From the IMG/VR virus record IMGVR_UViG_2850784384_000007: DNA of 59,292 bases, one strand, 5' to 3'. The notes below the pieces were generated by a model that searched no databases, was not told where the DNA came from, and saw nothing but the letters and a program-made list of their open reading frames with translations. Positions 46,143-50,298 of the stretch are shown in pieces. A program made the translations under genes and the position numbers. Source of the DNA: a virus (lineage: Duplodnaviria > Heunggongvirae > Uroviricota > Caudoviricetes). Every line of letters begins with the position of its first letter. Position 1 is the stretch's first letter.

Positions 46143-46148
46143 GGTCCG

Positions 46149-46932
46149 TTACCCCCTGAAGCCTGGCGGGATCGCACTGTCCGGCAACGAGACGGTGTTA
46201 ACCTGTCGGAGCAACGTCTCAGGCCGAACACCTTTCGGCGCGAACAGGCCCTGGTATTCATTGGCGATGCTGTGTCGAATCACCTGCTCAGGTGTAAAAC
46301 CCTGCTGACGGAATTTTTCCAGTTCCCGTATCGCCCTGCTCCGTTCGAATCGGTTTTCGCAATGCCTGTCTGAACCGGACCCACTCATGCCAGAGTGTTT
46401 CCGGCAACCAATCGGGCAGCTCAATAGCCTCCGGCTCGAATTTTTTAGACGCTCGTTTTTGGCGAGGGGGATTTAGGGGGAGATCAGTATTTAGATCTTC
46501 CTCTTCCTCTTCCTCTTCCACTGGTAACGCTTTTTGATCCGTTTGTGTAACGCTGGCAGCGTTACCTTTTCGTTTCAGTTCGCGTATTTTTGTTACTCGC
46601 TCGTTTGTAACCGCCCGTTTTTTAGAGCTTTTTCCGTTATGACGTTCAAAGTTAGGTAGAGAAAGCCCACCGTCATTTTCGACCAGCCATCCAACCTGAA
46701 TTAACGCATCAGCAAAACCAGACATAAAAGTGATGCGATCTATTGCACTTTTTGTAACGCCGCGAGCGTTACAATCTGCATTACCGTCTATCATTTGTTG
46801 ATCCGCCCATGCCCAGAAGCGAATAACCTTCCCTAATGCGGCATCTGGATCAATATTCAGAATCTCAGCAAGCCTGAATATTTCCGGCTTATCCGGCGTA
46901 ATAACCTCGAGCTTTATCCAGTTTGAAGCCAT
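46149..46932 (-). pseudogene. replisome organizer (Rac ydaU-like) with DnaT-like C-terminus in a different frame
   Basis: ORF 46288-46932 (214 aa) and ORF 46149-46424 (ending ..LPDSAIPPGFRG, DnaT-like) overlap in different frames; could also be a natural two-gene arrangement. Confidence 0.45.
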
Positions 46933-47009
46933 TTGTTTTCACCTTGTAACGCTCGCAGCGTTACATTTAACTGATACCGAACAAAACAATCCGGCACGAT
47001 TAATTTCAA

Positions 47010-47432
47010 TCAATGCACTACGACAGAATCGCCGGGCGACCCACCACCGCTGAAATGTGCTTTCCGGTAAACGGCCTGGACAGCATCATCATGCGCATCA
47101 ATTGCCGTACTCAACGCTTCCTGCGCCGCCAGTAATGCACGGCGTTCCAGGGTATCGAAGATACAGAGTCGGTGACGCAGCTCACGCGGAAGAATTGCCA
47201 GAACCGCAGGGATCAGTTTCTGAATTTTTTCCCTTTGCGCTTTCGTTTCACCTTTCAACCAACGGTGATAGATATTCTGCTGATTGTTCCAGTCCTTGCC
47301 TGGTACCAGAGACAATTCGCCGCCCCCCTGCCGCAGATATTCTTCAGTAATTGCGTTAGCGACCCACGCCTGCCCTTTTTCGGCTGCCAAGGCTAACAGC
47401 ACTGATTCGATGTGCTCATGCCTGATTTTCAT
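47010..47432 (-). CDS. ydaT: YdaT-like protein (Rac prophage CII-like regulator/toxin family)
   Basis: 140 aa, MKIRHEHIESVLLALAAEKGQAWVANAITEEYLRQGGGE... near-identical to K-12 YdaT as recalled. Confidence 0.8.
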   Translation of the reverse strand: MKIRHEHIESVLLALAAEKGQAWVANAITEEYLRQGGGELSLVPGKDWNNQQNIYHRWLKGETKAQREKIQKLIPAVLAILPRELRHRLCIFDTLERRALLAAQEALSTAIDAHDDAVQAVYRKAHFSGGGSPGDSVVVH

Positions 47433-47643
47433 GAATCACCTTCCCAGGTCGTTTTGCCTTACGATATTCGTCATAAACTTTGGGGTCGTACTGAAGTTCC
47501 CCGCCAGATGCCTCTTGCAGGCGCATCGCGCGACCTTCAGGAACCAGTTCCCCCCATGCAGCAATGCTTGCCAACCTAACTCCTGCGGCATTGGCAAGCT
47601 TTGTTTTGCTGCCAAAAAACGCTATAGCATCAATTTTCAACAT
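47416..47643 (-). CDS. ydaS: YdaS-like Cro-type HTH protein
   Basis: 75 aa, divergent from racR, overlapping ydaT start. Confidence 0.75.
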   Translation of the reverse strand: MLKIDAIAFFGSKTKLANAAGVRLASIAAWGELVPEGRAMRLQEASGGELQYDPKVYDEYRKAKRPGKVIHENQA

Positions 47644-47719
47644 ATCGAGCTCCTTAGATTTTCCTAAGGAAACCAGGCCGTAGAGAAACCTAAGTCAAGA
47701 AAAATTAGAATTCCCTAAT

Positions 47720-48127
47720 ATGAAAAACGAAACCTTCGGTGCTCGCCTCTTACATAGGCGTAAAAAATTAAAACTGTCTCAGGCCGCATTAGGTAAGCTG
47801 GTCAAAGTGGCTCACGTAACAATTTCTCAATGGGAAAGAGATGAAACACAGCCGGCGGGGAAAAGATTATTCGCACTGAGCCAAGCGCTTCAGTGCTCAC
47901 CGACTTGGCTTCTTTTTGGGGATGAAGATAAACAACCAGGCGAACCGATCCCGGATAATCAGCCAGCCATTCTGACAGAAGATCAAAAAGAGTTACTTCA
48001 ACTGTTCGACGCACTGCCTGAGTCAGAGCAAAAGGCCCTGTTGTCAGAGATGCGTGCTCGAGTTGAAAATTTCAACAAACTTTTTGAAGAACTACTCAAA
48101 GCTCGCAAAAGAAGCGCAAACAAATAA
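47720..48127 (+). CDS. racR: RacR-like prophage repressor (HTH only)
   Basis: 135 aa with HTH (LSQAALGKLVKVAHVTISQWERDETQP); divergent promoter region shared with ydaS. Confidence 0.75.
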   Translation: MKNETFGARLLHRRKKLKLSQAALGKLVKVAHVTISQWERDETQPAGKRLFALSQALQCSPTWLLFGDEDKQPGEPIPDNQPAILTEDQKELLQLFDALPESEQKALLSEMRARVENFNKLFEELLKARKRSANK

Positions 48128-48690: not shown

Positions 48691-50298
48691 ATACCATGCG
48701 CATTGACTGAATTCGCAAACAAAAACAGACGCGCGATACCCGGATAGTCGGTCTGCATAGTCAGATATCTGGCTGCGAATTTGATAAATATCACCGCCCT
48801 TTTCGGAAACATAAGTTCCGTCCGGGAGTTGATTATACGAACCATCTCCATGGGGGATCGTTCTCCTGAATCCTAGTGAGAGCATATATTTATGAAGCCC
48901 TTCGTAATCCTCTGGCTCAGTGGATTTGCCCCTATATTTCCAGACATCTGTTATCACTTAACCCATTACAAGCCCGCTGCCGCAGATATTCCCGTGGCGA
49001 GCGATAACCCAGCGCACTATGCGGATGCCATTCGTTATAATGCTCGAACGCCTCTGCAAGGTTCTTTGCTGCCGTTAACCCGTCTGGTTTGGGCATGATA
49101 CTGATGTAGTCACGCTTTATCGTTTTCACGAAGCTCTCTGCTATTCCGTTACTCTCCGGACTCCGCACCGCCGTGTTCTTCGGTTCAAGTCCCAACATCC
49201 GGGCGAACTGGCGTGTTTCATTAGCCCGGTAGCATGAACCATTATCCGTCAGCCACTCCACTGGAGACGACGGAAGATCGTTGCCGAAGCGGCGTTCCAC
49301 CGCTCCCAGCATGACGTCCTGTACTGTTTCACTGTTGAAGCCGCCGGTAGTCACCGCCCAGTGCAGTGCCTCACGATCACAGCAGTCCAGCGCGAACGTG
49401 ACACGCAGTCTCTCTCCGTTATCACAGCAGAACTCGAACCCGTCAGAGCACCATCGCTGATTGCTTTCTTTCACGGCCACTCTGCCTGTATGTGCCCGTT
49501 TCGATGGCGGTACAGCAGGTTTTCGCTCAAGCAACAGCGCATTCTGGCGCATGAGCCGGTAAACACGTTTGGCATTGATCGCAGGCATACCATCAAGTTC
49601 TGCCTGTCTGCGAAGCAGCGCCCATACCCGACGATAACCATACGTGGGCAGCTCTCCGATAACATGGTGTATACGGAGAAGCACATCCGTATCATCAGTG
49701 TGACGACTGCGGCGGCCATCCATCCAGTCATCGGTTCGTCTGAGAATGACGTGCAACTGCGCACGCGACACCCGGAGACAACGGCTGACTAAGCTTACTC
49801 CCCATCCCCGGGCAATAAGGGCGCGTGCGCTATCCACTTTTTTGCCCGTCCATATTCAACGGCTTCTTTGAGGAGTTCATTTTCCATCGTTTTCTTGCCG
49901 AGCAGGCGCTGGAGTTCTTTAATCTGCTTCATGGCGGCAGCACGTTCAGAGGCAGGAACAACCTGTTCTCCGGCGGCCACAGCAGTAAGACTTCCTTCCT
50001 GGTATTGCTTACGCCAGAGAAATAACTGGCTGGCTGCTACACCATGTTGCCGGGCAACGAGGGAGACCGTCATCCCCGGTTCAAAGCTCTGCTGAACAAT
50101 TGCGATCTTTTCCTGTGTGGTACGCCGTCTGCGTTTCTCCGGCCCTAAGACATCAATCATCTGTTCTCCAATGACTAGTCTAAAAACTAGTATTAAGACT
50201 ATCACTTATTTAAGTGATACTGGTTGTCTGGAGATTCAGGGGGCCAGTCTACTCAGCATTATATAGTTCTACTCTGGCGAGATACGTTGGCATATTCA
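48667..50298 (-). pseudogene. small phage gene (~96 aa when rejoined) disrupted by IS2
   Basis: Removing IS2 and one copy of the 5-bp duplication joins MPTYLARVELYNAE to PEDYEGLHKYMLSLGF... in frame. Confidence 0.4.
48921..50251 (-). mobile_element. IS2 with 5-bp CTCAG target duplication; insD 48932-49837, insC 49795-50160
   Basis: Ends TGGATTTGCCCCTATATTTCCAGACATCTGTTATCACTTAA and ...TGGTTGTCTGGAGATTCAGGGGGCCAGTCTA; Ins[19 protein letters not shown]..., InsD 301 aa; CTCAG on both flanks. Confidence 0.9.

Follow-up and report, generated by a model that had tools for sequence, protein, structure and literature searches.

Conserved half-sites within a phage replication-initiator gene mark a probable intragenic origin

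We analyzed IMG/VR virus record IMGVR_UViG_2850784384_000007 (Caudoviricetes), a stretch of DNA of 59,292 base pairs (bp) hereafter called the window, in which a palindrome recurs in and just upstream of a replication-initiator gene. This gene (PHROG 2509) occupies 46149..46932 on the minus strand, with its ATG at 46932-46930, and gene-sense terms are used for the sites throughout. It is broken: an 11-bp deletion near 46337 shifts the frame and leaves an open reading frame (ORF) of 214 residues (46288-46932), with the remainder in another frame; intact homologues have 262 residues. Next to it, also on the minus strand, is a ydaV/DnaC-like (IstB-like) helicase-loader gene (45396..46142), with an in-frame stop codon at 45801-45803 in the Walker A region. 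On the other side are a YdaT/CII-like gene (47010-47432) and a Cro/YdaS-like gene (47416-47643), both on the minus strand, and a CI-like repressor gene (47720-48127), which is the sole plus-strand gene of the block. The replication module in the window is decayed, initiator and loader being a pseudogene pair, yet all candidate binding sites are intact. As argued below, these sites are probably iterons, bound by the N-terminal domain of the initiator encoded in the same gene and marking an origin at a cluster of sites in the linker-coding part.

The three palindromes, which had been noticed in a first inspection of the window (the original prediction), are real and have the sequences quoted there. 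A scan of the window with TGTAACGC-N5-GCGTTACA at up to two mismatches gives exactly three matches, at 46546, 46753, and 46945, and the same scan of 100 dinucleotide-preserving shuffles gives none, which excludes chance. Their placement, one upstream of the gene and two inside it, also holds. Site 1 (46546..46566, minus strand) reads GGTAACGC-TGCCA-GCGTTACA, with a single mismatch (the last base, C), and lies at +366, in the linker-coding part of the gene and in what proves to be the conserved core. Site 2 (46753..46773, minus strand), at +159, is a perfect palindrome without mismatch that encodes C-N-A-R-G-V-T. Site 3 (46945..46965, minus strand), equally perfect and without mismatch, lies in the spacer between the ydaT-like and initiator genes. 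Since the initiator gene is on the minus strand, this palindrome is 12 nucleotides (nt) upstream of the start codon, where it abuts the Shine-Dalgarno sequence AAGGTGA.

Three further elements, all on the minus strand, had been overlooked. A fourth, isolated half-site, GCGTTAC in gene sense (46524-46530), directly precedes a 24-nt polypurine tract (46496-46519; gene sense, GGAAGAGGAAGAGGAAGAGGAAGA), which encodes poly-Glu. A degenerate half-site, GTAATGC (46778-46784), lies 12 nt 5' of site 2 and is GTAACGC in close relatives, at +148 in both L001 and L003. Just 3' of the polypurine tract there is a short AT-rich stretch (46466..46497, minus strand), which contains two GATC sites (46482-85 and 46494-97) and, in gene sense, a C5-TAAAT-C5 dyad (46466-46480). 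With the third GATC site at 46536-46539, three such sites cluster around the tract.

As for the initiator, its closest annotated relatives are found in Rac-like lambdoid prophages of Escherichia coli and Shigella and in phages such as vB_EcoS-666R9, whose protein URC10127.1 is an intact homologue, as is WP_498370835.1. These relatives are annotated as "DNA replication protein O" or "phage replication initiator YdaU family protein." An intact homologue (L001) matches PHROG 2509, "replication initiation protein," over residues 1-262 with an E value of 2.1e-88, and the same PHROG is also matched by initiators of Pseudomonas, Planctomycetes, and Akkermansia. The C-terminal half matches phrog_6451 and phrog_678. 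Its last 90 residues align to the C-terminal domain of DnaT (2ru8, E 1.6e-4; 9zbt, E 4.5e-4), the tail PD-S-x-IPPGFRG is identical between this domain and E. coli DnaT, and in many relatives the Pfam threshold for DnaT is exceeded. We regard the C-domain, given this resemblance, as homologous to that of DnaT. The N-terminal 115 residues gave no match in Pfam, NCBIfam, or PDB sequence searches and are predicted to fold as a winged helix; the N-domain family has 6,664 cluster representatives (50% identity, E ≤0.001). Immediately 3' of the polypurine tract, one C-terminal module is exchanged for another (YdaU-type, DnaT-type, DUF1627, and others). The gene had been called ydaU-like, a name that fits its C-terminal half and is wrong for its N-domain, which is unrelated to that of YdaU from the K-12 Rac prophage (hhalign of the N-domain profile, probability 0.2%).

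We compared the sites across 80 species-level loci with 35-70% protein identity, which span Enterobacterales, Pseudomonas, Verrucomicrobia/Akkermansia, Planctomycetes, Burkholderiales, and others, and used 49 non-redundant loci for counts, with presence scored as at most two mismatches in the 14 arm positions. The same two positions in the gene, approximately +148/+160 and +337 to +412, carry GTAACGC half-sites in nearly all of the 80 loci. The homologue of site 2, in the N-domain loop, is present in 44/49 loci and that of site 1, the linker palindrome, in 45/49. Recurrence in related prophages, the check proposed with the original prediction, is seen in this set; a search of ydaU in K-12 Rac (L002) found none of these palindromes. 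For example, GTAACGC-N5-GCGTTAC is kept at two gene positions in Klebsiella phage ST11-OXA245phi3.2, Enterobacter phage BUCT554, and E. coli phage TL-2011b, which have only ~68% nucleotide identity and other neighbor genes; the arms are invariant and the spacers vary. In an unbiased count of 7-mers, GTAACGC/GCGTTAC ranks first, with a density of 8.0 per kb between -100 and +500 of the gene versus 0.49 per kb in the flanks. Among 58 distinct close relatives (loci 96-98% identical, from a scan of viral contigs with protein alignment), diversity is 0.0022 at the 48 arm positions, 0.055 at the 15 spacer positions, and 0.021 at other positions. The arms thus show roughly a tenth of the polymorphism found in the rest of the region, and the spacers show more than it.

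Could this conservation be a by-product of coding constraint, or the mark of a homology patch used in shuffling N- and C-modules, with no role in protein binding? Site 2 does encode a near-invariant peptide, and C-terminal modules are indeed exchanged right after the polypurine tract. However, synonymous positions are frozen only within the motif: codons inside the palindrome are almost fixed (GGT 91%, AAC 98%, AGC 97%, GTT 91%), whereas outside it the codon entropy of conserved residues is near random (Gly and Val ~1.9 bits, Asn ~1.0). Moreover, two reading frames pass through the linker site, which encodes G-N-A-x-S-V-T in 34 loci and the unrelated peptide V-T-x-x-A-L-Q in 11; a direct reading of the sequence shows that the third frame would hold a TAA stop. 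Site 3 is intergenic, and a patch would not explain half-sites repeated at one helical turn or their replacement in subfamilies. The codon and frame data exclude coding constraint alone, and we regard this explanation as a whole as very improbable. Frozen synonymous positions, two reading frames, and invariant arms instead argue for selection on DNA rather than codons. Together, the comparisons across loci given here and below show the sites to be under DNA-level selection, specific to the initiator gene family, and changing with initiator subfamily.

Which part of this arrangement is common to all relatives? The core found in every relative examined is the linker cluster, at +337 to +430 in 45/49 homologues and +366 to +408 in the window. 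A palindrome comes first in it, often with additional half-sites, and an isolated GCGTTAC, directly joined to the polypurine tract, comes last. Only 46546, of the three palindromes in the window, belongs to this core, which here comprises 46546-46566, 46524-46530, and 46496-46519. It falls at the junction of the predicted DNA-binding N-domain and the DnaT-like C-domain. The half-sites follow a simple grammar, with inverted pairs at 12 bp (n = 97), direct pairs at 11-12 bp (n = 71), and further spacings that are multiples of these (22-24 and 33 bp), which fits an arrangement in which the sites share one face of the helix. Half-sites that stand alone or are repeated directly are found in either orientation, and recognition of duplex DNA would predict this. 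Tandem half-sites at a 12-nt period translate as repeated x-N-A-x tetrapeptides, such as SNAKGNAISNAASVT, in L095/L096 (Serratia), L103/L104 (Pantoea/Erwinia), L126 (a metagenome-assembled genome [MAG] of an uncultured gammaproteobacterium), and L178 (a viral contig). Loop insertions in the N-domain carry extra half-sites, and the DNA sites appear to drive peptide insertions in permissive regions of the protein.

The arrangement of GCGTTACC followed by polypurine recurs across phyla, the tract being (AGAGA)n, or (GAGGAA)n in Enterobacterales, over 14-31 nt. Inside the tract, all Arg codons are AGA (43/43), compared with 32/442 elsewhere in the same genes. This bias, in genes of 45-63% GC, is a further point against coding constraint and implies that the tract is also constrained as nucleic acid. 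A DNA-first scan of viral contigs for the junction between half-site and polypurine found it at 113 places, and all of those that could be assessed (74/74) fall in genes of this initiator family. A TA-rich decamer lies directly 3' of the tract; AT content in the 10 nt after it is 0.75 (mean of 42 loci) versus a background of ~0.45. The tract is a candidate unwinding or R-loop-prone element. In distant homologues and K-12 ydaU, the tract is followed by C-tract dyads (CCCCCC-TTA-CCCCCC, often then GGGGG) that encode P-P-x-P-P, and the run of CCC codons suggests a feature at the DNA level.

Another possibility is that the palindromes act as RNA hairpins, with an 8-bp stem and a 5-nt loop, in the early-operon mRNA, controlling stability or translation of the initiator message, possibly via an RNA-binding protein. 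In favor of this, the predicted fold is obtained for every palindrome, folding of the spacer region is better than that of its shuffles (z -2.97), AAGGTGA follows immediately after site 3, and there are a few pairing-compatible variants (GTCAC/GTGAC in 3 cells, G-C to G-U in 3 cells). Against this, the stem sequence itself is kept across phyla, with two-sided changes in only 5/630 cells and 40 unpaired, and one locus (L121) has a mid-stem G.A mismatch common to both its sites. The most widely kept element is an isolated half-site, which is unable to pair, and direct repeats occur in both orientations, although a single-strand motif is not expected to be functional in both. An Rfam scan gave no relevant match. 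A role as hairpins therefore seems very unlikely to us.

Unlike the linker cluster, the other two sites have a restricted distribution. Site 2 codes for a low-confidence loop of the predicted winged-helix domain. Members of the canonical subfamily typically have this site, but the WIKMR..DDPRV subfamily lacks it and has only the linker cluster, and we therefore rejected the idea that two clusters are a universal feature. Upstream palindromes homologous to site 3 occur at -32 to -44 in Shigella, Mixta, Erwinia, Yersinia, Serratia, Winslowiella, and Pantoea, and none was seen outside Enterobacterales among the 80 loci. On this distribution, the sites at 46753 and 46945 are lineage-specific accessory sites. 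The distance between the distal and linker clusters ranges from 189 to 264 bp without periodicity, so that no conserved helical phasing was seen between them. A promoter scan of 46100-47800 revealed no sigma-70-like promoter, and none overlapping site 3; the initiator gene sits within the early operon. A classical autoregulatory operator, by which the initiator would repress its own gene, is therefore not supported. The sole "terminator" match of the scan was site 1 read antisense, which we regard as incidental.

The motif also varies with the initiator. Salmonella phage epsilon15 and Pseudomonas phage PSA-2T have GTCCGC as their half-site, Ralstonia phage Raharianne has GTAGAC, and Vibrio phage 1.211.A and two MAGs (L130 and L151) have GTCAC. 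These divergent subfamilies retain the layout and the polypurine tract, and the variant half-site is common to both clusters of the same genome. K-12 YdaU, whose N-domain is of the unrelated type, has TGTTCAAACA repeats instead. The switch of half-site with subfamily indicates, at the level of sequence comparison, that initiator and iteron co-evolve. The motif follows the initiator N-domain across phyla and differing gene neighborhoods, and the initiator is the sole gene constant across all these loci. Its predicted winged-helix N-domain is consequently the best candidate binder, and we infer that it binds the sites. In epsilon15 (L169) and Vibrio phage 1.211.A (L173), a C-5 cytosine methyltransferase gene lies directly upstream of the initiator gene and overlaps it; the half-sites contain CG.

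Binding by a host protein, either a global regulator or a replication factor recruited by the phage, would account for the same 7-mer being kept in phages of very different hosts. To our knowledge, however, there is no host DNA-binding protein with a single specificity for this sequence across Enterobacterales, Planctomycetes, and Verrucomicrobia. Within the 59-kb window the motif is confined to the initiator gene, and its density is 16-fold lower in the flanks of the loci. A host factor is highly improbable, since half-sites differ between related initiators from the same host genera, as in epsilon15 (Salmonella) and PSA-2T (Pseudomonas) versus the canonical motif in Escherichia/Shigella and Pseudomonas.

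The dyad symmetry, and the position of site 3 just downstream of the ydaT-like gene, might also suggest operators of a neighboring regulator (YdaT/CII-like, Cro/YdaS-like, or CI/RacR-like). YdaT recognizes ATGATT-N6-AATCAA or TTGATT-N6-AATCAA (PMC11879457, PMC9986795). This box differs in sequence from the palindromes, and a separate YdaT-box-like site is found at 47423-47438, which led us to reject operators of a repressor or of YdaT. In addition, the motif persists in loci without ydaT, ydaS, or racR and with other immunity genes (Klebsiella, Enterobacter, TL-2011b, Pseudomonas, and Planctomycetes loci), whereas K-12 Rac has RacR, YdaS, and YdaT but no such palindrome. We consider operators of this kind most improbable. 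The original prediction had spoken of initiator or repressor sites that mark an origin or an autoregulatory operator. What survives of it, on comparative evidence, is the initiator-site and origin part; the repressor or YdaT operator is rejected and, with no promoter at site 3, a classical autoregulatory operator is not supported.

The reading we favor is thus the one given at the outset, in which the initiator's own N-domain binds the palindromes as iterons. The probable core of the origin is site 1, the half-site at 46524-46530, and the polypurine/AT-rich segment at 46466-46519. In the mechanism that we infer, including the binding protein, origin function, unwinding site, and helicase loading, initiator subunits would fill 7-bp half-sites (GTAACGC) 11-12 bp apart, as dimers on inverted pairs and as single subunits on isolated half-sites. 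The resulting complex would destabilize the polypurine/AT-rich segment. The DnaT-like C-domain could then engage the exposed single strand and bring in DnaB with the DnaC-like loader (YdaV). Sites 2 and 3 might stabilize the complex by looping or throttle initiator expression.

Several points weigh against this interpretation. Its support is comparative throughout. At site 2, which also encodes the conserved peptide G-N-A-x-S-V-T, constraint on the protein is mixed with constraint on the DNA. In the window, the three sites are ~200 bp apart and do not form a tight lambda-like array, and the AT-rich stretch is short (10-15 bp), which makes the unwinding role a conjecture. Another phage factor that always travels with the initiator gene would also fit, although no such constant neighbor was seen. 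Finally, no description of this origin was found in the literature searched, many older or subscription papers being out of reach.

A bolder version of the scheme is possible but, in our judgment, unlikely. It holds that these loci represent an undescribed class of phage origin, spread across many phyla, in which a domain that has no Pfam model reads a near-invariant 7-bp iteron in its own coding sequence, with R-loop or triplex firing that depends on (AGAGA)n and an origin-specific restart primosome. Iterons would be written into permissive loops and linkers of the initiator's own coding sequence. It is the (AGAGA)n tract, and not simple melting of AT-rich DNA, on which firing would depend: an R-loop or triplex would arise at the tract through the sense transcript or negative supercoiling, and the tethered DnaT-like domain would turn it into a loading site for DnaB.

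In kind, what we describe is most likely familiar, an iteron origin embedded in an initiator gene, here with a widespread and, in the literature searched, undescribed initiator family that is not detectably related to lambda O. Its unusual features are the invariance of the half-site across phyla, the overprinting on coding sequence, and the conserved polypurine tract. Position and layout match those of the lambda origin. In both cases the gene of the initiator itself contains the inverted repeats, where its N- and C-domains meet, and even the positions agree, lambda iterons being at +348 to +432 of gene O and the linker cluster here at +337 to +430. The lambda iterons are followed by a sense-strand purine-rich A-tract and those here by a purine-rich/AT-rich segment. 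As in lambda and in the lambdoid/Stx ori/O pairs, the site changes with the type of N-domain, and C-domains and loaders are exchangeable modules. However, the sites here are 7-bp half-sites in 11-12-bp phase together with isolated half-sites, in contrast to the four tandem 18-19-bp iterons of lambda. There are accessory sites ~200 bp away, and a long (AGAGA)n/(GAGGAA)n tract in place of the lambda A-tract. The C-domain is DnaT-like where that of lambda O binds P, and the same half-site is used here across phyla. Homology to lambda O was not detected for either domain (N-domain hhalign probability of 0.1%, BLASTP E >1, no Pfam match).

The K-12 Rac prophage has the same operon order (repressor, ydaS/cro, ydaT, initiator, and DnaC-like ydaV), and the C-terminal half of the initiator gene is ~84% identical in nucleotides to ydaU, the aligned part being window 46101-46500 only. 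The two differ in their N-domains and in the palindromes, as described above. Instead, four to five TGTTCAAACA-type repeats are found mid-gene in K-12 Rac ydaU (L002 2938-3020), followed by an A-rich tract with two GATC sites, and these repeats correspond in position to the linker cluster. An active origin, oriJ, has been reported for Rac (PMC3945230; Potrykus et al. 2000, cited in PMC11014345). It is plausible, from position and layout, that the TGTTCAAACA repeat region is the core of oriJ; no sequence-level definition of oriJ was found in the searchable papers.

Iteron plasmids offer a second parallel. P1, F, pSC101, pPS10, and R6K use one half-site both as direct repeats and as inverted repeats, the inverted repeat being an operator over the rep promoter (autorepression), and the DNA-binding domain of their Rep proteins is a winged helix. 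The system here likewise uses its half-site as direct repeats and inverted pairs with helical-turn phasing, has one inverted pair just upstream of the initiator gene, and has a DNA-binding domain predicted to be a winged helix. In contrast to the plasmids, the sites are embedded in coding sequence and no promoter overlaps the upstream palindrome. No Rep_3/RepA-type Pfam match to the initiator was found, and no DnaA boxes were noticed, although no systematic search for them was made. Among phages, the satellite P4 requires initiator sites in two clusters apart from each other, ori and crr, and the origin lies inside the replisome-organizer gene in Bacillus phage SPP1 (oriL inside gene 38) and in many lactococcal phages. 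Most members of the family here similarly have two separated intragenic clusters, but the proteins are unrelated to those of P4 and SPP1, and one subfamily is without the second cluster. E. coli DnaT (primosomal protein I) lacks an N-terminal domain for sequence-specific origin binding and works together with PriA and PriB at abandoned forks, whereas the DnaT-like domain here is tethered to a candidate specific origin.

With a frameshifted initiator and a loader interrupted by a stop codon, the origin in the window could fire only with an initiator supplied in trans. The sites could thus be an orphan origin, and in Shigella-like genomes such an origin, with its broken initiator, could be fired by the initiator of a related prophage. 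If correct, our interpretation would define a candidate origin at the level of sequence for many phages and prophages for which we found no origin description: Rac-like prophages (Escherichia, Shigella), epsilon15/phiV10-like podophages, Xanthomonas CP2-like and Ralstonia phages, and prophages of Pseudomonas, Akkermansia, and Planctomycetes. The signature of GTAACGC half-sites plus polypurine tract could then help in annotating origins and in predicting whether prophages that share a host are incompatible or activate one another. It would also be a clear natural case of regulatory DNA overprinted on coding sequence, with synonymous sites frozen and one site read in two frames.

Other features were noted nearby. 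The spacer between the ydaT-like and initiator genes contains a second inverted repeat (~46975-46995; gene sense, CCGGATTGTTTTGTTCGG), which is predicted to form an mRNA hairpin; its counterpart in phage vB_EcoS-666R9 is a perfect ACCGAAC-N6-GTTCGGT. The YdaT-box-like site at 47423-47438 is an inverted repeat, TGATTTTCATGAATCA, that overlaps the start codon of the ydaT-like gene and agrees with the YdaT box established by experiment in Rac and CP-933P (ATGATT-N6-AATCAA), which suggests that YdaT autoregulation is conserved in this prophage. The CI/Cro intergenic region (47644-47719) contains CCTAAGGAAA-type repeats that resemble immunity operators and are unrelated to the GTAACGC motif. Farther out, two IS3-family transposase ORF pairs (42372-43576 and 48932-50205) flank the immunity/replication block, and a QueH-like ORF is found at 43711-44397. 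These fit a Shigella-like decayed prophage rich in insertion sequences, and the closest protein matches are fragments from Shigella flexneri and Shigella sonnei.

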